Origin: an uncultured Eubacteriales bacterium
GTDB lineage: Bacteria; Pseudomonadota; Alphaproteobacteria; RF32; CAG-239
Assembly (NCBI GenBank): GCA_963632615.1
Contig: CAVGVF010000001.1
Location: 72,636 to 136,635, forward strand
Length of the DNA stretch: 64,000 nt
Direction: 5' to 3'
Shown here: positions 16,133-37,865 of the stretch, piece by piece
How positions within the stretch are numbered: the first letter of the stretch is position 1
Layout of the letters: every line of letters starts with the position of its first letter
Notes under the pieces: generated by a model
Databases searched by the model: none
Told to the model about the DNA's origin: nothing
What the model saw: only the letters and a program-made list of their open reading frames with translations
Translations under genes and position numbers: made by a program

Positions 16133-16921
16133 TTAAAAACTAACTTGTACAGCATATCTGTATTTACTTGGATCTTTTCCTTTATAAGCAGAACATAACT
16201 CATTCATATCATTGAAATTCATATTATTCATACATCTTACGCCTTTAGTGCAATAGCGATTTCCCCAAACGCTATACATTTTTATATCTCCGGCCAGCGG
16301 TTCACGCCATATTTTCCGGACATTATCCTTAAAATTCAAAGCAGCTTCCATAAAGGCCTGACAGACTTTAGGGCTAGCACTGTCAAAACCTAACCAATAA
16401 AAGAAGCCGAACGCCCTGCTTCCTTTATTACCGCTTGAATATAAAGTTACACCAAAGCCGTGTGAATCTTGAAAAGCATTTCCCCGCACATATTTAAATT
16501 CTCTCGGCAGCATATTTAGACTTTTCATAGTATATACATAATTTGTTTCCGTTCCCCAGCCGCCGATTTCTTGATTATTAAAATCATTTCTAATTTGTAT
16601 AAAATTATAAAAAACCTCAGTCCAGGCATCTCTTAATTTAATAAATTTATACCGTTCCATAGCTTTAGAGTAACCGGCAATACCACCCACGCTAAGAACC
16701 GCGATAATCGCCAGCACGCCCAGCATTTCTATCATTGAGCGGCCAACACAATTACCTGTCACACTTGGCTTTGAGCGAAGCGAATTCGCCGAGTGTCCAG
16801 GATGGTACATCCGATTAAAAAACTTGCAACAAATACTAAACACGCGTCCCAAGCACCAGTCATTGCCGGACATGACGGAGAACAAACGAAAGCTAAAACC
16901 ATTATTCAAATTATTATTCAT
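16133..16921 (-). CDS. prepilin-type N-terminal cleavage/methylation domain protein (type IV pilin/pseudopilin-like), paralogue 1
   Basis: Contains G-RSMIEMLGVLAIIAVLSVGGIAGY with Glu at +5 and a hydrophobic helix. The ATG at 16921 sits behind RBS GGAGG in exactly the same leader context as paralogue 2. The leader peptide is unusually long (49 aa); an internal Met at 16810 would give a 23-aa leader. Confidence 0.6.
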   Translation of the reverse strand: MNNNLNNGFSFRLFSVMSGNDWCLGRVFSICCKFFNRMYHPGHSANSLRSKPSVTGNCVGRSMIEMLGVLAIIAVLSVGGIAGYSKAMERYKFIKLRDAWTEVFYNFIQIRNDFNNQEIGGWGTETNYVYTMKSLNMLPREFKYVRGNAFQDSHGFGVTLYSSGNKGSRAFGFFYWLGFDSASPKVCQAFMEAALNFKDNVRKIWREPLAGDIKMYSVWGNRYCTKGVRCMNNMNFNDMNELCSAYKGKDPSKYRYAVQVSF

Positions 16922-16945
16922 ATTTCTGAACCTCCTTAAACAAAT

Positions 16946-17126
16946 AAAAAAACAAAACCCACCAAAATGGCGGGCGGATGTTCAGAAACCGTACTATACT
17001 AAAACGGCTCGGCTTATTCAGCTCATAGCCTTATTTAGCCGACATCCGCTCTAGGCAGAAATCGGCATAAAAAAATTTTAAGTCGTTTATGCATAACGAC
17101 TAGTATAGAAAGGGTTTCTGACGCCC
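16946..17126 (-). promoter_or_regulatory. conserved structured 5' leader element (copy 1) ending in a terminator-like hairpin plus U-tract
   Basis: About 85% identical to 30390-30575 in reverse-complement orientation. Compensatory changes lie in two helices. Putative promoter TTGCTT-N18-TATACT at 17148-17177 on the minus strand. Confidence 0.6.
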
Positions 17127-17371
17127 TGCATTTTGCAATGCAGTTTTAGTATAGCTTATCGCCGTTAAAATAAGCAAGGAAAATTTGAAATTATATTTAC
17201 TGTAAATATAGTGATAAATAAAATAGAGAAAAAATTAAATGAAATCAGTACAAAACTTTCAGAAACTCGGATAGCGTGTATAAATGCGACGGAATTTTTA
17301 AGCGACGTGTACACAATAGTACACGAGCGCAAAAATCCCTAGCAGATACCAGCTAGACGAGTTTCATACCA

Positions 17372-30157: not shown

Positions 30158-30242
30158 GCGCTTGTGGCGGAATCGGTAGACGCTGCAGACTTAAAATCTG
30201 TTGGGATTTATCCCGTGCCAGTTCAAGTCTGGCCTAGCGCAC
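30158..30242 (+). tRNA. tRNA-Leu (anticodon TAA)
   Basis: Cloverleaf with long variable arm, anticodon loop cuuAAaa, T-loop GTTCAAGTC, encoded CCA. Promoter TTGCAA-N17-TATATA at 30116-30144. Confidence 0.85.
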
Positions 30243-30250
30243 CAATAAAA

Positions 30251-30275
30251 AGGCTTTCCTTTAGGAGAGCTTTTT
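30251..30275 (+). terminator. intrinsic terminator after tRNA-Leu
   Basis: gctttcctttaggagagc followed by T7. Confidence 0.7.
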
Positions 30276-30306
30276 TTATGAATAACCGACAGCTAATACA
30301 CATTCG

Positions 30307-30331
30307 TCCGCTAATGAGGCGGATTTTTTTT
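30307..30331 (+). terminator. second tandem intrinsic terminator
   Basis: tccgctaatgaggcgga followed by T8. Confidence 0.6.
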
Positions 30332-30389
30332 CTTTACAAAACTAATTTGCTTAATTAAACTGAAAATTAGATATACGAGAGTTTATCTA

Positions 30390-30575
30390 GGGCGTCAGAA
30401 ACCCTTTTAGTTGCAGATAGTCGCTTTTGCATAAGCGACTTTAAACAGATTATGCCGATTTCTGTCATTGGACGGATGTCGGCTGAATAAGGCTATGCGC
30501 TGAATAAGCCGAGCCATTCTGCATCTGCAACTAATGGTTTCTGAACATCCGCCCGCTTTTTGCGGGTTTTGTTTT
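30390..30575 (+). promoter_or_regulatory. conserved structured 5' leader element (copy 2) ending in terminator-like hairpin plus U-tract
   Basis: Paralogous to 16946-17126. Helices: tcagaaacc/ggtttctga; tagttgcagat/atctgcaacta; agtcgcttttgcataagcgact; tcggct...agccga. Terminator-like gcccgcTTTTTgcgggtTTTGTTTT at 30551-30575. Promoter TTGCTT-N18-ATATAC at 30347-30376. Confidence 0.6.
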
Positions 30576-30602
30576 ATGTGCAATTTTTGGAGGTTTAGAA
30601 AT

Positions 30603-31250
30603 ATGTATAAGAATTTGGAAAAAGGACGTTCCATGATAGAAATGCTCGGCGTCATCGCTATTATTGCTGTTTTATCAGTCGGCGGGATTGCCGGGTATTC
30701 CAAGGCTATGGAAAAATTTAAGGTTAATAAAGCCGTATCAGAATACAGTTATTTAATCCAAGGGCTTATGGAACATCTGGAAAATATTCAAAAAATGTCA
30801 AATGTTCAGGAGGGCGATGTTCATCACGGGCTGGTAAATGTTGTGCAAGCAGCCGGTTTAGTGCCGGAAACTTGGGAAAATTCCGGCAATCCGGCAGATG
30901 ATAGAATGATTGATCCTTATGGCAATGTGATTCAAATATTTTCACGGAACAGCCGTTTGGTTATAGATATGTATCTTGGTGGCTTTAGCAACGTCGAAAA
31001 CGGCAGTGCTTCTCTTTCTTTTTCGCCAAAGTTTTGCAGCGTATTGATGCAGGATGTGGTTAAACCATTGTCTTCGGTTTTGCATCATGTTTGGTTTACA
31101 AATGGCAGCGGCTTATCTTATTTAGGAGATAAATTTTGCCGTTCAGGGCAAAAATGTGTTCGAAATTTGACCTTAATCGATATACAAAAAACTTGTAATT
31201 ATTGCACTAAAGAATCAGGTAAACTTTGCGGGCTAATTTTAGAATTTTAA
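30603..31250 (+). CDS. prepilin-type N-terminal cleavage/methylation domain protein, paralogue 2
   Basis: MYKNLEKG^RSMIEMLGVIAIIAVLSVGG: short leader, Glu+5, hydrophobic helix. RBS GGAGG 9 nt upstream. Cys-containing C-terminal domain. The track ORF start at 30534 is upstream of the RBS. Confidence 0.65.
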   Translation: MYKNLEKGRSMIEMLGVIAIIAVLSVGGIAGYSKAMEKFKVNKAVSEYSYLIQGLMEHLENIQKMSNVQEGDVHHGLVNVVQAAGLVPETWENSGNPADDRMIDPYGNVIQIFSRNSRLVIDMYLGGFSNVENGSASLSFSPKFCSVLMQDVVKPLSSVLHHVWFTNGSGLSYLGDKFCRSGQKCVRNLTLIDIQKTCNYCTKESGKLCGLILEF

Positions 31251-31843
31251 CCTGGATTATTATCAAATAAAATACCTATGTTACAATTTTGATTTTTACA
31301 GGTGTTACATTTTTGCAATGTTTTATTTAGAGTATAATCTTGGCAATTCATATCTTTTGCATATTGACTAGGAGCAGCTTTTCCACAAACTGTATAGCTT
31401 GTCCAATCTCCGACAGCCCAAATGCTGTTGTAATATTTAGGCAGTTCATATAGTTTTTTGCAGCAATTTACGGCATCTTTGCCTGCCGGCATTTGATATT
31501 TAAGTTCAAAGCGCAGGCCGTAATTTTTCCAGCCTATAGTAAACACTCTTAGGATATTTCCAAATAAATCTTTATGGTTAATATCAACGTAACTTGTTTG
31601 TATAATATCTGCACTGATTAAAAAATTGGTTATGTCTTCTTCCTTGGCGGTGTAGGATTTTTGATTAAGGTAAGCGGTTTGAATGTTGTTAATGGTTTGG
31701 ATAAGTCCTTCTTGCCATTTATTCAGTTTATACATTTCCATAGCTTTGGAGTAACCGGATATTCCGCCAACGCTCAATACAGCAATAATTGCCAGTACAC
31801 CAAGCATTTCTATCATTGAATGGCCTATTTGATTATTTTTCAT
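31247..31843 (-). CDS. prepilin-type N-terminal cleavage/methylation domain protein, paralogue 3
   Basis: MKNNQIG^HSMIEMLGVLAIIAVLSVGG with RBS AAGGAAG. An alternative start at 31876 is possible. Convergent with paralogue 2, overlapping it by 4 nt. Confidence 0.65.
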   Translation of the reverse strand: MKNNQIGHSMIEMLGVLAIIAVLSVGGISGYSKAMEMYKLNKWQEGLIQTINNIQTAYLNQKSYTAKEEDITNFLISADIIQTSYVDINHKDLFGNILRVFTIGWKNYGLRFELKYQMPAGKDAVNCCKKLYELPKYYNSIWAVGDWTSYTVCGKAAPSQYAKDMNCQDYTLNKTLQKCNTCKNQNCNIGILFDNNPG

Positions 31844-31932
31844 AACAACTTCCTTTTTCTCTTTGAAATTAAACAAAAAAGCCGTCTGAAAAAGACGACC
31901 GGAAGTTGAGAACTATTGTATATAAGTATAGT

Positions 31933-31964
31933 GTAGCATATTAGCGTATAGCATATTTTGCTAC
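31933..31964 (-). promoter_or_regulatory. conserved leader hairpin motif shared with the other two pilin leaders
   Basis: Stem gtagca/tgctac encloses loop aaatatGCTATACGCTaata. Compare tcggct/agccga enclosing gaataagGCTATGCGCTgaata at 30479-30512. Confidence 0.5.
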
Positions 31965-32089
31965 CTTCCGATCAATAGATCAGAAGGTATTTTACGTCTA
32001 ATATTTGACGTATATACAAGAGGTTCTCACACCTCGGACAGACTATCGCCTGTCTGCTGTAAAGTTATAAAAAAAGCGGTAAAATATCA

Positions 32090-32140: not shown

Positions 32141-32749
32141 CTACATCAAATTGTGAATATTGTATTCGTCATAGCCCTCATAATAGTAGCTGACATCAAT
32201 ACCTTTCATAAAAACTTCGCGCTCGTTGATTTTATCCGTGAGGGCGTTTTGCAGCAAATGTTTGATTTCTATATCTTTAATCGGACTTCTTTCCATGGCG
32301 GAAAGGTAATCCGCCTTATCAATTTTATTCCAATCCACGACTTTTTTCAGTTCTTTTTTAAATATTAAATCAAGCCAGATTCTAGTCGCCCGCCCGTTTC
32401 CCTCTCTAAACGGGTGGGCAACGTTCATTTCCACATATTTTTCCACGATTTCATCAAAAGTTGATTGCGGCATTTTATCTATTTGCTTTAGTGATTGCGC
32501 TAAATACATAACCGGAGCAAACCGAAAATTGCTTTTAGCAATGTTGACGGTGCGGAGCTTGCCGGCAAAATCGTAAATATCTTCAAACAAATACTTATGA
32601 ATTTGCTTAAGACCGCTAAAAGTGCCGACTTTTATTTTCTCAATTTTTCCGCTGTCAAAGAGTTTTTTAGCTTTGATTTTGCTTATTTTCTCTTCAGCTT
32701 TGTTCAGTTCTATTTGGTCCGTGATATTTAATTTATTTTCTAAAACCAT
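32141..32749 (-). CDS. fic: Fic family protein, class III (C-terminal inhibitory helix)
   Basis: Fic motif HPFREGNGRATR and C-terminal S-YYY-EG (SxxxEG) inhibitory motif; 202 aa, the NmFic-like size. Confidence 0.85.
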   Translation of the reverse strand: MVLENKLNITDQIELNKAEEKISKIKAKKLFDSGKIEKIKVGTFSGLKQIHKYLFEDIYDFAGKLRTVNIAKSNFRFAPVMYLAQSLKQIDKMPQSTFDEIVEKYVEMNVAHPFREGNGRATRIWLDLIFKKELKKVVDWNKIDKADYLSAMERSPIKDIEIKHLLQNALTDKINEREVFMKGIDVSYYYEGYDEYNIHNLM

Positions 32750-32768: not shown

Positions 32769-35700
32769 TTAGAACTTATAGCCTAAATTGAACAGATAAT
32801 AAACATTGCTCTTTTGTTCAAGCGGAGCGTTTACAGTCGCGCTGAGCGAAAGTTTTTTATAGTCGTACTGCGCCTTTACAGTCAATAAACCGCTGTCGCG
32901 CTGCAAACGGTTGCTGTTGATTTGATATGAGCCAAGCATATTGTCCATGGTCACCATCGTTGAATATTTGCTGCCGAATTCATGGAAATAACGCCCGCCG
33001 GCAGTCAGCAAAACAGACTGTTCTTTGCCGAGGTCAAAATCTTTCTTAATATCCATACCGATAACAGATTGAACTGATGTAACTTTGTCGCTGTCGGCTT
33101 TAAGTCCGCCGTTATTTTCTTTTAAGCCGTCAACTTTTACTTCAGTGATATTAGCGCCGGCAACCGGTTCAAGCTGCGCGATGTCAAGGTCTATAGTTTG
33201 GCGGGCTTCAGCGTCAATACCATAGTAGTAGTTGGTTAAATCAGCCTTATAGGCTTTATCCACGCCGCTGCGGCTGTAGTGACCCTTGCCGAAACCGATT
33301 TTAGGCTTAGCCATAGCGCGGAAATTATCATTGCTATAAGTCAGCGGAGCAAACACTTCCAGCACATTGTTATAACGAGATGAATCGTCATCAAAATCGC
33401 TGTCGCTGCGAGCCGCCGCCGCACCGAAACCTGCACGCCAGTTATTGGCAATTTGATAGTCGCTGAAACCGTAAACAGCTGTAACCTTGTCTTTATAGCC
33501 CGAAACATTGTGTTTGCCGTCAAACTCTTGCTGATAAGCCAAAACATTAACTTTAGCACGGCTTATTTCATTTGTTTGCGCCAAAATATCGTCATTGGCC
33601 GCGCGGTTGATATTGGCCAGCAAATCTAAGTCTTGTTTCGCCAAATTCGGAATCATGCTAAAGCCTAACTCGCGGTTTATAGCCGTATCAAAAGCCGAAG
33701 CAGTAGCCATACCTTTTAAGGTATTGAAAACGCCCTCGCCTTTTTGCGCTGCATAGTTTGTGCTTAAATATGCCGCCAGCTCTTTGTTGGCAACAGTTTC
33801 ATCAAACGATTTCATAGTCATAATTACGTCGGTGTTGCCGGATTCGTTAGCGGCTTTTTCAGCATTAAACATATAAGAGCCGGAAACCACATTTAGACCT
33901 GCATCTTTGCCGATAAATGAGTTATCGTTGCGGTAGGTCGTTTCAAATCCGCTTTGGGTAATATCCGCATCGGCTGTAACCGTGCCTTTTAAGGCCGGAG
34001 CTTTATAAGTTCCGTTTTTGCTGATGGCAATAACACCGGAATCTTTTGTTGAAGCATCAAAATCAAAAACATCATTATAGCTTACGGTGCCGTGATTTTT
34101 AAACACAGAGTTGTTTTGCACCATCATAAATCCGGAGCCTGACTGAGTTGACGTGCTTTCTTCACAGTCCATGCCGCTGCACAGTTCAGCACCGTTGACG
34201 GCATCTATAATGCCGTTATTGGTTGCGGTTCCGCCTTCATTTACGATAATGCCGTAAGATGTGCCGGATTGATTATTTTGGTTTATATAAATTCTTCCGT
34301 CGCTGTCGTTGGTAAAGGTTCCGCCTGCAACTCTTACGCCGGCTGAATTTGTACCGTAAACATGAATTTGGCCTTTATTGGTAACTTCGCCTTTTTCAAT
34401 ATAAATACCGGTGCCGCGGTCAACAAAATCTGTAATAATCACATTTCCGGAATCATCAAAACTGCCGGTGCCGATAGTAATCAGCCCGCTGTTTTCAAAA
34501 TTAGCTTCTTCGCCGGTAACTTTTACACCGTAGCCGTTATTGCCGATAACAGTTATATTGCCGGTGTTTTTGCTTTCTCCGCCGCTGACAGACATAGCCG
34601 TGCTGCCGGCTCCCGTCACTTTGATGTTTGAATTGTTGGTAGTTGTTCCGGCTGTTTCAATGCCGGTGCTGTAGTTTGTGCCGACTTCAATAGAGCCGTT
34701 GTTCTCAACAGTTCCTTCATCCGAAACAGAAACAGCCGTATTGCCGCTTCCGCTGTTGTTGCTGCCCAAAACCAGCTCAATGTTGCTGTTGTTGGTAAAA
34801 GTGCCTTTGCCGGCTATAACCGCTGTGCTGTTACTTGTGTTATTCAGGCGCAAAGTGCCGTTGTTGGTAATTTTTGTGCCTGTGCCGCCTGACGAGGCGT
34901 CAATGATGGTGCCTTTTTCAGTAATAGATATCTGCACATTGTCATTGACCGTTAAAGAAGCATTATCCATCAGTTTCGCTAAAGTTCCCTGTTCAAAGCT
35001 CATGCTTTTTTTCAAGGTTAAATCGCCGACTACCAGAAAATATGTCATGGTGGAAGCGGCTTCGGTGCTGCAATTTTCATCTGTAGTCGGATCGCAGATA
35101 TTAACGTTGCCGATATTGTCAATCACGGCTTTGCCGCTGATTTGGAATACGGTGGCGTTAGTGCCGAAAATTTTAATAATATTGTTTTTTATAACAGCGC
35201 CGTCCTGCAGTTCGCCGGTTCCGGCCGAATAAATGCCGATATTGTTATCTCCGTAAAGATTGATAACGCCGTTATTATATATATAGCTGTTTCCGGTGGC
35301 GTAAATGCCGAACGAATATTTGCCGTTTACGTTTATTACACCGGTTTTGTCGTTGATAACGTTGGCAATTCCGCTTGCATCGCTGGCCATGCCTACAGAA
35401 TAATCTGTTCCGACATCAATGCTGCCTTGATTCGTCATTTTTGCCGTGGAAATAACATCTTTATCCATATACATGCCGGCATTGTTGAAATTAGTGCCGT
35501 TTGAAGTCAAAATGATTTTACCGGTATTGGTTGCCGTACCTTGTTTTGAAGATACAGTCATTGCCGAGGTATGCGCCGATGACAGATTGATTGTACCGGA
35601 GTTGGTTATGGTTTCGGTTTCGGATGAGGCAACGGATGAGGTGGATGACGGAGATTTTGTGTTCATCACGCTTTGCTTTACGGTTAAAGTGAATTTGTCG

Positions 35701-37865
35701 GCCAAAGTGGCTGCTTCGCTGGACGAGCCGGAGCCTGACGAACCGGAAGAGCCGGATGATGAAGATTCATCATTCAGAGTGGCATCGTAAATGATGGTGC
35801 CGGCATTTACCAAGTTACTGTAATTTCCGCTGAAAACATCGGTGCCGATGGCGTTTTTATAAACATGGATGGTGCCGTTGTTTATCAGATTTGTTCCGCC
35901 GCTGTAGTCATTTCGGAGGGCTGTCGATTTATTTGAATAAATGTTAATCTGTCCGTTATTTACCAAAGATGTCAGAGTACTATCGCCGGAGCCGTACATG
36001 GCGATATTGTTGGTATAGCGGGTATTGTCGCTGGAACCCAGAGTAATTGTTCCGTTTTTATCATTCAGCAATGTTCCGCCGTTATATGAAGCCATTCCGA
36101 AGCCGTTGCTGGCATTTAACTGAATATTGCCTTTGTTGGTAACTGTTTGCTTGGTTGTGGTATATAGTCCGGATACCGAACCCGAACCTTCAACTGCAAG
36201 CATACCGTAGGTCATGCGCTGGTTATCGCCGTTAGTCTGAATGGTAATGTTTCCGGTGTTGGTAATGCTTCCGCTGTGAACAGACTGCATGCCGGCGGCA
36301 ACGGCAACAGAGTCTGATGAGCTTCCGGATTCGGAACTGTCATCTAAAGTAATATTGATTTTTCCGCTGTTGGTTGCCGTTGTATTGGCGTCTGCCCGCA
36401 TTCCGACAATTCCGCCCAAGCCTTTGCGCAAAGTTTTGGTTGTGTCAAAGGTGTATTGCCCCGTATATCCCAAATCTATGATACCGCTGTTGCTCAAAAC
36501 AGATTTATCGGCTCTTTGAATATTTTTAGAACCATTTAAAAATCCATCGTCCAAATAGCTTCCCATACCGATGATATTCACTTTGATTTCCGAGGCAGCG
36601 GCTCCGGCATCGCCGGCGCTGAGTTTTATGGTGCCGCTGTTTGAAGCTGTGTTGGTTTGATTGATGGCTTGCGAACCGGTATTCAGTATCATTGTTTCCA
36701 TACCGATAATGGTGCCGGATACGGATGTAACTTCCTTGGAACTGCTGTCGGAATTTTCATCTTGAGCAAAAATACCGTTCAGAATGCCGCCCGAAGAACT
36801 GCCGTTTTCAGAATCATCTTTGGTCGGGTCGCTGATTGCTTTAATGGCCGAACCGTTAATTTCTCCGGTATTTATAATCTGCGAGCCGTTATCGGCATAC
36901 ATACCGATAATCGTGTTGTTTTCGGTATATCCGGAAAAATTGAGGTTGATACCGTTGGCATCAGGGTCTTGGATAACCCCTTTTCCGTTATTGTAGGCAA
37001 TGGAATTATTGCTGGCAATCATCGCCACTGAATTATTAAACGCGTCAACATTTATATAGCCGTTGTTTGTAACCGTGCTTTTGCGGATTGCCGCCATTGC
37101 GGCCGAGCCTTCTCCGGCGGATATTTTAGTGTTCAGGCTGTTTGTGTATGAGCCGCCGTCAAGGGCTTCCAAGCCGACATCCATATATTTGCCGGCTTCC
37201 AGTACATTTTTATTGAAGTTAATTTTAGCGATTTCCGCTGTTTTGGTGTTTTTTATGTTTAATAAGCTGCTGTTTACGGCTGTTCCGCTGGTTGATTTTG
37301 CCACAGAGCCTTGCGAGCCTAAGGTTTCGCCGATATAGTTATTAGTTTCGGTTTCAGAGCTGCTGCTGCCGCCCCCGCCGCCTCCGCTCATTGCTAATGC
37401 GGCAATACCTCCGCCGACAGCCAAGCCGCCCAGCAGCCACCAGGTTGTAGAGGAGATTTTATATTTTTCTTTGCCCATTGTTCCATAAGCTTCACGAGGG
37501 GTTGCGGTTACGGAAACAGCTTTGGAATTGTTTACAAAATCTTCATAATATTCTATTTTTTGCACGCATGGATGGCGAGGGTTAGCTCCGGCGGCGCGGA
37601 AGGCATTGTAGGTGTAGGCATCTCTGTTTTGGGCGGCAACGCAAAGTCCGGTGTCGCCGTTTTGGTTGACACTGTCAATATTCATACCGCGGCGGACAGA
37701 AGCTCTCAAAGCTTCAACTTCGCCGTTTTGCGCCAGATTATACATTTTATTGAAAGACAGCGGCGACAAATTATAGGCTTTAGCCTCAGGCGCGGCTATA
37801 GTCAGGCTGAAAGACGCCAAAGACAGTAAACCAACGGTTTTTAGTATTATTTTGTTATTAAACAT
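32769..37865 (-). CDS. large autotransporter (type Va secretion) with beta-helical repeat passenger
   Basis: Sec signal MFNNKIILKTVGLLSLASFSLTIAAPEAKA; Gly/Ser linkers; dozens of degenerate N(N/S/T)G(T/N)I beta-helix repeats; C-terminal ~280-aa beta-barrel ending ...LFNLGYKF. Confidence 0.8.
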   Translation of the reverse strand: MFNNKIILKTVGLLSLASFSLTIAAPEAKAYNLSPLSFNKMYNLAQNGEVEALRASVRRGMNIDSVNQNGDTGLCVAAQNRDAYTYNAFRAAGANPRHPCVQKIEYYEDFVNNSKAVSVTATPREAYGTMGKEKYKISSTTWWLLGGLAVGGGIAALAMSGGGGGGSSSSETETNNYIGETLGSQGSVAKSTSGTAVNSSLLNIKNTKTAEIAKINFNKNVLEAGKYMDVGLEALDGGSYTNSLNTKISAGEGSAAMAAIRKSTVTNNGYINVDAFNNSVAMIASNNSIAYNNGKGVIQDPDANGINLNFSGYTENNTIIGMYADNGSQIINTGEINGSAIKAISDPTKDDSENGSSSGGILNGIFAQDENSDSSSKEVTSVSGTIIGMETMILNTGSQAINQTNTASNSGTIKLSAGDAGAAASEIKVNIIGMGSYLDDGFLNGSKNIQRADKSVLSNSGIIDLGYTGQYTFDTTKTLRKGLGGIVGMRADANTTATNSGKINITLDDSSESGSSSDSVAVAAGMQSVHSGSITNTGNITIQTNGDNQRMTYGMLAVEGSGSVSGLYTTTKQTVTNKGNIQLNASNGFGMASYNGGTLLNDKNGTITLGSSDNTRYTNNIAMYGSGDSTLTSLVNNGQINIYSNKSTALRNDYSGGTNLINNGTIHVYKNAIGTDVFSGNYSNLVNAGTIIYDATLNDESSSSGSSGSSGSGSSSEAATLADKFTLTVKQSVMNTKSPSSTSSVASSETETITNSGTINLSSAHTSAMTVSSKQGTATNTGKIILTSNGTNFNNAGMYMDKDVISTAKMTNQGSIDVGTDYSVGMASDASGIANVINDKTGVINVNGKYSFGIYATGNSYIYNNGVINLYGDNNIGIYSAGTGELQDGAVIKNNIIKIFGTNATVFQISGKAVIDNIGNVNICDPTTDENCSTEAASTMTYFLVVGDLTLKKSMSFEQGTLAKLMDNASLTVNDNVQISITEKGTIIDASSGGTGTKITNNGTLRLNNTSNSTAVIAGKGTFTNNSNIELVLGSNNSGSGNTAVSVSDEGTVENNGSIEVGTNYSTGIETAGTTTNNSNIKVTGAGSTAMSVSGGESKNTGNITVIGNNGYGVKVTGEEANFENSGLITIGTGSFDDSGNVIITDFVDRGTGIYIEKGEVTNKGQIHVYGTNSAGVRVAGGTFTNDSDGRIYINQNNQSGTSYGIIVNEGGTATNNGIIDAVNGAELCSGMDCEESTSTQSGSGFMMVQNNSVFKNHGTVSYNDVFDFDASTKDSGVIAISKNGTYKAPALKGTVTADADITQSGFETTYRNDNSFIGKDAGLNVVSGSYMFNAEKAANESGNTDVIMTMKSFDETVANKELAAYLSTNYAAQKGEGVFNTLKGMATASAFDTAINRELGFSMIPNLAKQDLDLLANINRAANDDILAQTNEISRAKVNVLAYQQEFDGKHNVSGYKDKVTAVYGFSDYQIANNWRAGFGAAAARSDSDFDDDSSRYNNVLEVFAPLTYSNDNFRAMAKPKIGFGKGHYSRSGVDKAYKADLTNYYYGIDAEARQTIDLDIAQLEPVAGANITEVKVDGLKENNGGLKADSDKVTSVQSVIGMDIKKDFDLGKEQSVLLTAGGRYFHEFGSKYSTMVTMDNMLGSYQINSNRLQRDSGLLTVKAQYDYKKLSLSATVNAPLEQKSNVYYLFNLGYKF

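Follow-up and report, generated by a model that had tools for sequence, protein, structure and literature searches.

Introduction

The small RNA sRNA-Xcc1 (Rfam family RF02221) is an 88-nt RNA detected on Northern blots (PMC2996969), and in Xanthomonas integron cassettes it is found upstream of symE, in the same orientation (bioRxiv 10.1101/2025.06.18.660453). Here we describe a distantly similar RNA element that occurs in exactly three copies in a 64,000-nt stretch of DNA from an uncultured alphaproteobacterium (contig CAVGVF010000001.1; hereafter, the window), as determined with a covariance model, R1: positions 16933-17130 on the minus strand (copy 1), 30386-30591 on the plus strand (copy 2), and 31856-32038 on the minus strand (a diverged copy, designated type B). 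Copy 1, read from 17130 to 16933, is a structured 5' leader of approximately 200 nt located directly upstream of a prepilin-like open reading frame (ORF). The comparative evidence presented below indicates that this leader is probably a cis-acting, riboswitch-like attenuator with two alternative folds, which would control both terminator read-through and access to the ribosome-binding site.

No family was found in the window with Rfam 15 at the gathering score, and a search of the leaders at an E value of ≤10 revealed no riboswitch family; low-scoring matches to TLS-PK5, ROSE_2, and other families were set aside as noise. The only recurrent Rfam match was to sRNA-Xcc1, with 34.4 bits for copy 1 and 24.5 to 40.2 bits for approximately 20 other leaders of the same type (type A), while 13 type B loci gave no match and none of the leaders reached the RF02221 gathering threshold of 53 bits. 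The 3' half of the type A leaders aligns over model positions 1 to 87, always over three helices that we term S1, X, and Y. The outer stem of Xcc1 corresponds to S1, its first hairpin, in which a small inner helix accompanies an AAUA-rich internal loop, corresponds to X, and its second hairpin corresponds to Y; a single-stranded U-rich joiner, a U-rich tail, and a position upstream of a gene in the same orientation are also shared. Because the match is repeated and structurally congruent, we consider sRNA-Xcc1 to be the closest known relative of the leader on comparative grounds, although the leader does not qualify as a member of that family. In contrast to Xcc1, the leader has an additional 5' domain of approximately 100 nt (P0, H1/P1, P1b, P2, and P3) that competes with the Xcc1-like fold, as well as a separate terminator hairpin and an anti-Shine-Dalgarno (anti-SD) strand. 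The context of Xcc1 (an integron cassette, upstream of symE, in beta- and gammaproteobacteria) also differs from that of the leaders, whose hosts are gut Alphaproteobacteria and whose downstream genes are others; integron features were not searched for. The symE arrangement of Xcc1 is compatible with Xcc1 being a leader too.

The leader has further resemblances to dual-platform riboswitches, such as the cyclic di-GMP (c-di-GMP) classes I and II: a multihelix domain with a variable closing helix, mutually exclusive terminator and antiterminator pairings, masking of the Shine-Dalgarno (SD) sequence, many copies per genome, and surface-structure genes downstream. Two features generally expected of a riboswitch, namely, a structured domain supported by covariation and exclusive pairings of the terminator and SD sequence, can be recognized in the leader from sequence and covariation. 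Unlike these riboswitches, however, it matches no Rfam riboswitch, and its antiterminator would be formed by the 3' arm of the internal hairpin P3 and not by the 3' strand of the closing helix P1. The ribonucleic antiterminator (RAT) elements of the BglG/SacY-LicT type and the LoaP leader hairpin likewise have a less stable antiterminator, an overlap of a few nucleotides with the terminator, and conserved internal loops, but they share no sequence similarity with the present leader, which is much larger and also masks the SD sequence.

Results

The leader is predicted to rest in a terminator-containing fold

On the minus strand, from approximately 17165 to 16919, copy 1 is arranged as a promoter region, the ~200-nt leader, a GC-rich hairpin, a U-tract, the sequence AAGGAGG, and an AUG. 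The folds of copies 1 and 2 are much stronger than those of shuffled sequence (RNAfold z-scores of -6.4 and -7.2). Conservation of the pairings was assessed in an alignment, A7, of 96 covariance model matches from gut Alphaproteobacteria metagenome-assembled genomes (MAGs) and metagenomes, 94 of which are distinct, giving a family size of at least 94. Some measures were also taken on a set of 38 leaders.

Fold I, the predicted OFF state, consists of the long-range helix P1 with its variable inner extension P1b, the enclosed hairpins P2 and P3, and the terminator T. The P1 core pairs UCAGAAA (17115-17121 in copy 1) with UUUCUGA (16982-16988). Between 99 and 100% of its cells are paired (99.3% in the alignment), four of six pairs have changed on both sides, and up to four pair types occur per position, with CG/GC/AU, GC/AU, and AU/GC/UA/CG at the variable positions. 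P1b, whose length varies from 6 to 15 bp, was scored by an arm-swap test and not by alignment columns. Among the 38 leaders there are 36 distinct pairs of arms, all of them complementary, and the longest stem averages 9.4 bp for cognate arms versus 4.4 bp for noncognate arms; in copy 1 the arms are CUAUACUA (17101-17108) and UAGUAUAG (16994-17001). P2 (AGUCGUU-AUGCAUA-AACGACU; 17081-17101) and T covary throughout the 94 distinct homologues. P2 is 98.3% paired with five of five pairs changed on both sides, and in T, which was located by a terminator scan as GCCCGCC-AUUU-UGGUGGGU followed by UUUUGUUUUUUU (16950-16975), all six stem pairs have changed on both sides. P3 (GCCGAUUUCUGCC-UAGA-GCGGAUGUCGGC; 17038-17066) is present in the minimum-free-energy (MFE) fold of 85% of the leaders.

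The original prediction, which was based on a comparison of copies 1 and 2, proposed that their differences are compensatory, and this was borne out. The inner helix is CTATACTA/TAGTATAG in copy 1 and TAGTTGCAGAT/ATCTGCAACTA in copy 2; the two helices occupy the same position, and complementarity is retained in each. P2 changes from AGTCGC...GCGACT in copy 2 to AGTCGT...ACGACT in copy 1, a C-G to U-A replacement; and the terminator stems are GCCCGC/GCGGGT and GCCCGCC/GGTGGGT. The broader set of leaders extends this pattern: the long-range helix has another sequence in nearly every copy and stays complementary throughout, and P2 and the terminator likewise covary. Two ORFs predicted antisense to the leaders (16824-17054 on the plus strand and 30407-30703 on the minus strand) do exist and have ARLIQ.IALFSRHP in common; as had been suggested, they are artifacts of conserved RNA-coding DNA.

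The single-sequence MFE structure was fold I with the terminator in 38/38 leaders (P1, 0.91; P3, 0.85; T, 0.96), with S1, Y, and H1 all at 0, and fold I persisted when the sequence ended before the 3' arm of the terminator. The OFF fold is thus the ground state in these predictions. RNAfold also drew a hairpin, "P4" (GGCU...GAGCC), in type A leaders; this was rejected, since it has no type B counterpart and X is the conserved pairing at that place. An extension of P1 by the 5' strand of H1 (GGG with UCC, "P1x") and a full-length P3 in one register were paired in only 87% and 79.5% of cells, respectively, because the two types differ in register; the P1x extension showed no double changes.

A second, incompatible fold is conserved by compensatory changes

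When applied to the alignment, RNAalifold chose a different structure, fold II, the predicted ON state, which comprises H1, P2, S1, X, and Y. H1, GGG[...]CCC, is a local hairpin that carries the 5' strand of P1 in its loop; in copy 1 it is AGGG[CGUCAGAAA]CCCU (17111-17127), and it is 99.7% paired, with three of four pairs changed on both sides. S1 pairs CGGAUG, within the 3' arm of P3 (17038-17051, an SD-like sequence containing GGAUGU), with CAUCCG, immediately 5' of the terminator. The S1 3' strand, ACAUCCGCCC (16972-16981), shares 3 nt with the start of the terminator and has complementarity to the SD region as well; the S1 core is 99.8% paired. X (UCGGCU/AGCCGA; 17009-17042; 99.1% paired, five of six pairs changed on both sides) contains a small inner helix and an internal loop, AAAUAAG / GAAUAA, that hardly varies. 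Y (CCGU/ACGG; 16989-17007; 100% paired, two of four pairs changed on both sides) has the 3' arm of P1b as its loop, and it shows a compensatory change from GCCGU/ACGGU in copy 1 to GCCAU/AUGGU in copy 2.

Fold II was scored with the P1 core as a pseudoknot, a total of 37 pairs, on the 94 distinct sequences, and scoring was repeated on 38 sequences. In the larger set, 98.9% of cells pair, 27 of the 37 pairs have changed on both sides, and covariation is 0.424 versus 0.176 in shuffles, with the observed value reached in 0 of 500; partners slid out of register gave ≤0.075. Over both sets the ranges are 97.8 to 98.9% paired, 25 to 27 pairs double changed, and covariation of 0.42 to 0.53 versus 0.18 to 0.23 in shuffles and ≤0.11 for slid partners. 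G-U/U-G pairs outnumber A-C/C-A 127 to 17, which argues for selection on RNA of the leader strand.

Folds I and II are mutually exclusive, because P3 and S1 take the same strand, because the 3' arm of P1b is the loop of Y with a linker of only 1 nt to the 3' strand of Y, and because H1 and Y use C and G residues that extend P1. The 3' arm of P3 covaries with both of its partners, the 5' arm of P3 and the 3' strand of S1. In type B leaders, S1 has 9 to 10 Watson-Crick base pairs and reaches 3 to 5 nt into the 5' arm of the terminator, while in P3 wobbles and an occasional mismatch are tolerated.

The 3' strand of S1 is also an anti-SD sequence: AACAUCC faces GGAUGUU at the SD sequence in type A, and AACUUCC faces GGAAGUU in type B. 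In leaders of nonpilin genes, the match covers 8 to 9 bp and reaches the last variable nucleotides of P1, where matching changes are seen (GAAC/GUUC and UAAC/GUUA). When the alignment was carried through the start codon, 78% of the cells of the anti-SD/SD helix were paired, and the diagnostic pair 14:79 was A-U in 32 sequences and U-A in 22. When the SD sequence is included, the terminator lies within the anti-SD:SD helix in the MFE folds of L093, L092, and L152. In copy 1, the SD sequence and spacer, GGAGGUUCAGAAAU, precede the AUG (16921-16919) of ORF 16133-16921 (the element spans 16919-16935), and the duplex with GGUUUCUGAACAUCC is predicted at -17.7 kcal/mol; the duplexes of the P1 3'/anti-SD strand with the SD region in the three window copies are -17.7, -15.7, and -12.2 kcal/mol. 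One pyrimidine strand, the 3' strand of S1, is thus contested by three partners: the P3 arm, the terminator, and the SD sequence. The original prediction had recognized neither the alternative fold of H1, S1, X, and Y, which is conserved, nor the anti-SD/SD pairing.

The third arm of copy 1 is not a family feature

The alternative structure proposed originally was a different one, in which a third copy of the inner-helix arm, upstream in copy 1, would displace the internal partner. The sequence is indeed present: CTATACTAAAAC, at 17154-17143 on the minus strand, is complementary to GTTTTAGTATAG (17005-16994) over all 12 nt. However, across the 38 leaders, the 3' arm pairs with its own upstream sequence no better than do the arms of other leaders (6.37 versus 6.33 bp), and the third arm is missing in L003 and L004, the closest relatives with the inner helix of copy 1. 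We therefore rejected a third-arm attenuator as the mechanism of the family. The proposal of a structured, attenuator-like leader holds with respect to its compensatory changes, terminator, and alternative pairings, and fails with respect to the third arm, which is found only in copy 1.

Whether the third arm may matter for copy 1 depends on the promoter. Comparison with the homologous promoters of L038 and L039 (TTGATT/TTGCAT ... TATAAT directly before P0) points to TTGCTT-N18-TATACT (17147-17176, minus strand) as the likely promoter; the third arm then overlaps the -10 box (TATACT), extending over AAAAC as well, and most of it would remain untranscribed. A consensus scan gave a second candidate, TTATCA-16-TATAAT (17217-17190, minus strand), from which the third arm would lie within the transcript and would be used by RNAfold. 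Because the homology-based and scan-based promoters differ, the transcription start site of copy 1 could be set by either candidate.

The leader family is widespread and not confined to pilin genes

In the protein database, 4,735 relatives of the pilin were found, mostly from uncultured Alphaproteobacteria. A genome scan with the pilin alignment yielded at least 80 loci in human-gut Alphaproteobacteria MAGs, with many pilin paralogues per genome; a contig search with the pilin of the window returned no encoding contigs. Iterated nhmmer identified 40 leaders among 109 pilin upstream regions and established that types A and B are homologous, and R1 was built from 35 of these 40. The model gave 46 strong matches in pilin loci, and all significant matches there (E ≤ 6e-6) lie directly upstream of prepilin-like ORFs; a weaker match of 30 bits in L059 does not.

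Metagenomes were scanned with a degenerate DNA pattern derived from the conserved core, which retrieved at least 120 stretches, and the 80 listed loci, searched with the covariance model, contained 87 matches. Prepilin-like genes follow only 18 of the 87 listed copies, so that the name "pilin leader" proved too narrow, and a pilin-specific function is ruled out, since most listed copies precede other genes. These encode autotransporters, in which the Pfam autotransporter beta-domain was matched with E values of about 1e-48 to 1e-53, and small lipoproteins, of which one carries a PEGA domain; others encode an EcoRI-type adenine methylase (E value of 1e-128), a DXD glycosyltransferase, an XRE-type helix-turn-helix protein, and an outer-membrane-protein-like ORF. 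Before such unrelated genes, the leader core is 69 to 89% identical to that of copy 1, with the variable helix segments scrambled. All 96 of the 96 covariance model matches are full length and in a single orientation, and with few exceptions they lie directly upstream of a gene, with a gap of approximately 15 to 25 nt between terminator and SD sequence that leaves no room for a second promoter. The leader family is widespread in gut Alphaproteobacteria, with many copies per genome.

Several copies have unusual arrangements. Tandem leaders approximately 80 nt apart were seen in L084 (750-937 and 474-667, minus strand) and L156 (152-339 and 423-615, plus strand). In these pairs a separate promoter, CTTTAC...TTTTAAT, precedes the downstream leader, which is followed by a PEGA lipoprotein gene. 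No ORF follows the upstream tandem leader or the leader of L106 (28-216, plus strand), making these orphan, sRNA-like copies. In L162 (4129-4335, minus strand) and L141 (2254-2461, minus strand), the leader stops after AACAUCCGU, lacks the terminator hairpin, and is followed by unrelated A/T-rich sequence, which may reflect a rearrangement or insertion at the anti-SD/terminator border. The leaders of L003 (1793-1989) and L004 (1602-1794) carry the inner helix of copy 1 (CUAUACUA/UAGUAUAG), while their P0 hairpin and downstream pilin (79 to 81% identical) match those of copy 2, a mosaic that suggests recombination between leaders.

Promoters, other window copies, and neighboring genes

Adjoining H1 on its 5' side, copy 1 has a further hairpin, P0, recognized as an inverted repeat (CUGCAUUGCAAAAUGCAG; 17126-17143, minus strand). 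In most homologues this position is likewise occupied by a hairpin, as a rule with a covarying stem and a loop of GAUA/AAUA; P0 is outside model R1. A promoter-like motif, CTTTACA-N17-T(T)AAAAT, is present upstream of most leaders (e.g., window 30333-30361 and L001 2830-2860), with P0 lying between it and H1; among 91 leaders checked, 37 had the pattern, and in 23 of these it ended 24 nt before the first model position. The likeness of the P0 loop region GGCGAUAG to the ops/JUMPstart element was set aside, as P0 is a covarying hairpin whose sequence varies by subgroup and differs in copy 1.

The whole unit of copy 2 occupies 30333-30605 on the plus strand, with the promoter TTTACA-17-TAAACT at 30333-30361, the terminator at 30551-30567, and the SD sequence and spacer at 30589-30602 before the AUG (30603) of the prepilin-like ORF 30603-31250. 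Directly upstream of this promoter are a tRNA gene (30158-30241) and terminator-like hairpins at 30250-30273 and 30306-30324, all on the plus strand. The unit of the type B copy occupies 31841-32075 on the minus strand, with P0 around 32055-32075, the leader at 32038-31856, the terminator at 31900-31880, and the SD sequence GGAAGUUG at 31853-31846 before the AUG (31843) of the prepilin-like ORF 31247-31843. Its architecture is that of type A, to which it is homologous by both nhmmer and the covariance model. A Fic/DOC-family ORF (32141-32749, minus strand; Pfam E value of 1.7e-13) ends approximately 65 nt upstream of the type B promoter region, and a 1,698-amino-acid ORF (32769-37865, minus strand) lies just past it.

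Variation at the pilin genes

ORF 16133-16921, downstream of copy 1, has a prepilin-type N terminus (GRSMIEMLGVLAIIAVLSVGG) with the prepilin motif GRSMIEMLGVLAII; its matches to prepilin models are weak and confined to the N terminus. It carries an in-frame insertion of approximately 150 nt (window 16750-16900, minus strand) between its start (MNNNLNNG...) and the cleavage motif GRSMIEML. Similarly placed insertions of 100 to 430 nt were seen in L029, L075, L074, L034, L036, L039, L004, L098, and L131. Pieces of the insertions recur in L185, L034, L100, L176, and L039, and their translations resemble repeat elements (…ANSLRSKPSVTGN… and …SVILRR…). Small repeat insertions thus seem to have a hot spot in the prepilin leader peptide.

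The same genomes contain pilin paralogues that lack the RNA leader. In one class, an inverted repeat of approximately 22 nt, GTGTGTAAAAAAAACGACCGTT ... AACGGTCGTTTTTTTTACACAC, flanks the promoter, its halves approximately 170 bp apart, directly before the SD sequence (L021:1557-2030, L025, L027, L005:1557-2030, L013, L033:728-255, L077:638-165, L078, L082, and others); from its sequence, this looks like an invertible promoter. Another class begins with AUGAAAAAUAAGCUAUUCAAAGGU, followed by a (CU)6-8 tract within a long prepilin leader peptide (L019:1557-2030, L020:1557-2030, L033:429-902, L058, L062:1557-2030, L077:1557-2030, and L082:1788-1315), an arrangement that looks like slipped-strand phase variation.

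Discussion

The conservation of two incompatible folds suggests a mechanism for the leader. In the OFF state, the long-range helix formed by P1 and P1b would close a junction carrying P2 and P3, P3 would sequester the SD mimic GGAUGU, and AACAUCC would be left free; the terminator would form directly 3' of AACAUCC, which could itself pair with the SD region. In the ON state, P1b and P3 would open, and the 3' arm of P3 would pair with AACAUCC and the first 3 to 5 nt of the terminator, forming S1. S1 would close a three-way junction with X and Y, the 5' end would fold as H1, the terminator would be weakened, and the SD sequence would be released. We infer that the leader does switch between these states, that the ON fold is stabilized by a small molecule or a protein, and that regulation runs in this direction.

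Several observations weigh against this proposal. Fold II is predicted to be 17.9 ± 6.6 kcal/mol less stable than fold I (a value that leaves a possible H1-loop pseudoknot uncounted), and P3 and P1b would form first during transcription; a stabilizing effector, or kinetic help, would therefore be needed for switching. In type A leaders, S1 is limited to 6 bp, a mismatch, and 2 bp, and overlaps the terminator by 1 to 3 nt. The pilin subgroup, including copies 1 and 2 of the window, has the SD sequence GGAGG/CGGAG, which matches the anti-SD strand imperfectly and is the source of 28 unpaired cells in the alignment, and the gene-less copies in L106 and upstream in L084 would fit a free-standing small RNA.

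If the leader is a two-state switch, the effector could be either a protein or a small molecule, and we give these two forms similar weight, each being possible but doubtful when taken singly. A dedicated RNA-binding protein that bound the S1-X element with its internal loop, as BglG/SacY bind RAT and LoaP its leader hairpin, could stabilize the otherwise unfavorable ON fold and act as an antiterminator. The ON fold lies approximately 18 kcal/mol above the OFF fold, as in RAT antiterminators that need their protein, the X loop is near-invariant and nearly symmetric with two AAUAAG-like strands, and the downstream genes encode surface and accessory functions and no metabolic pathway. However, neither a candidate protein linked to the loci nor an Rfam match to a known protein-binding leader family was found, and a regulator would be titrated by the dozens of leader copies in each genome. 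A ligand such as a nucleotide second messenger could instead bind the S1/X/Y junction, giving an ON switch, or the P1-closed junction, giving an OFF switch. Such a small-molecule riboswitch would account for the variable closing helix combined with invariant junction and loop nucleotides, for an expression platform that joins a terminator with SD masking, and for the many copies per genome; c-di-GMP riboswitches typically control genes for pili and adhesins. Against it are the lack of a match to any Rfam riboswitch family and downstream genes that give no metabolic clue to a ligand.

Readings without such a switch fit less of the evidence. The repeated subthreshold matches of type A leaders to sRNA-Xcc1, itself seen as an 88-nt RNA on Northern blots, together with the orphan copies and the strong terminators, could mean that the element is a free-standing gene for a trans-acting, Xcc1-like small RNA that ends at the terminator and lies upstream of other genes incidentally. 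We consider this improbable, because nearly all copies lie in the same orientation 15 to 25 nt before an SD sequence with no promoter room, the anti-SD strand covaries with the SD sequence of the downstream gene, and Xcc1, too, has a gene, symE, downstream of it in the same orientation. Comparably improbable is a static 5' untranslated region, acting in stability or constitutive dampening, or an RNA thermometer. That the OFF fold is the ground state in all 38 MFE folds and that a pyrimidine strand masks the SD sequence, as in RNA thermometers, would suit this idea, but a static element would have no need of a second, incompatible fold kept by compensatory changes, ROSE_2 scored 20.2 bits versus a threshold of 65, and the leader is a two-state, multihelix RNA of approximately 200 nt and not a single SD-masking hairpin of the ROSE or fourU type. 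Least probable by far is a DNA-level element, with the P1/P1b inverted repeats as sites of inverton- or attC-like recombination that would make surface genes phase variable. Variable inverted repeats do surround a conserved segment of approximately 130 bp, the downstream genes, for pilins, adhesins, a methylase, and a glycosyltransferase, resemble a phase-variable repertoire, promoters flanked by inverted repeats and (CT)n tracts do occur at sister pilin paralogues, and Xcc1 occurs in integron cassettes. Yet every match is full length in one orientation, the excess of G-U over A-C pairs noted above is not expected of DNA repeats, the promoter is outside the repeats, and the repeat sequences are unconserved, unlike recombinase sites.

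A leader-peptide attenuator was also considered and rejected: the commonest internal AUG opens an ORF of at least 10 codons in only 39 of 94 leaders, without an SD sequence, and its frame crosses an indel-rich hairpin loop, giving 5 and 12 codons in copies 1 and 2, respectively. The sequence ACAAGGAUGU at the SD site resembles ACARGGAUGU, the CsrA consensus from systematic evolution of ligands by exponential enrichment; this is a lead only, and the GGA motifs are base-paired in both folds.

We conclude that the leader is genuine and widespread and probably acts in cis as a two-state regulatory RNA. Its terminator and anti-SD strand are conserved, it is distantly like Xcc1, and there is a fair chance that it represents a new class of riboregulator for a surface-protein regulon. 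It is an RNA family absent from Rfam at threshold, with at least 94 distinct copies, and literature searches, including a survey of structured RNAs in the human microbiome (PMC8040213), yielded no description of the motif, which could still be an unnamed entry in catalogues of that kind. Compensatory changes that back both alternative folds are unusually clear evidence for a natural RNA switch. More tentatively, the leader may be a new class of riboregulator in which an effector, ligand or protein, switches on surface and accessory genes, with sRNA-Xcc1 as a distant, truncated relative. If so, the genes under its control would include those for pilins, autotransporter adhesins, lipoproteins, a glycosyltransferase, and an orphan methylase in uncultured human-gut Alphaproteobacteria, and Xcc1-type RNAs would be cis-acting attenuators and not trans-acting small RNAs; a small-molecule effector would make the leader a new riboswitch class, one whose regulon is unusual. 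We propose that, through this leader, poorly known bacteria of the human gut govern their cell-surface repertoire.

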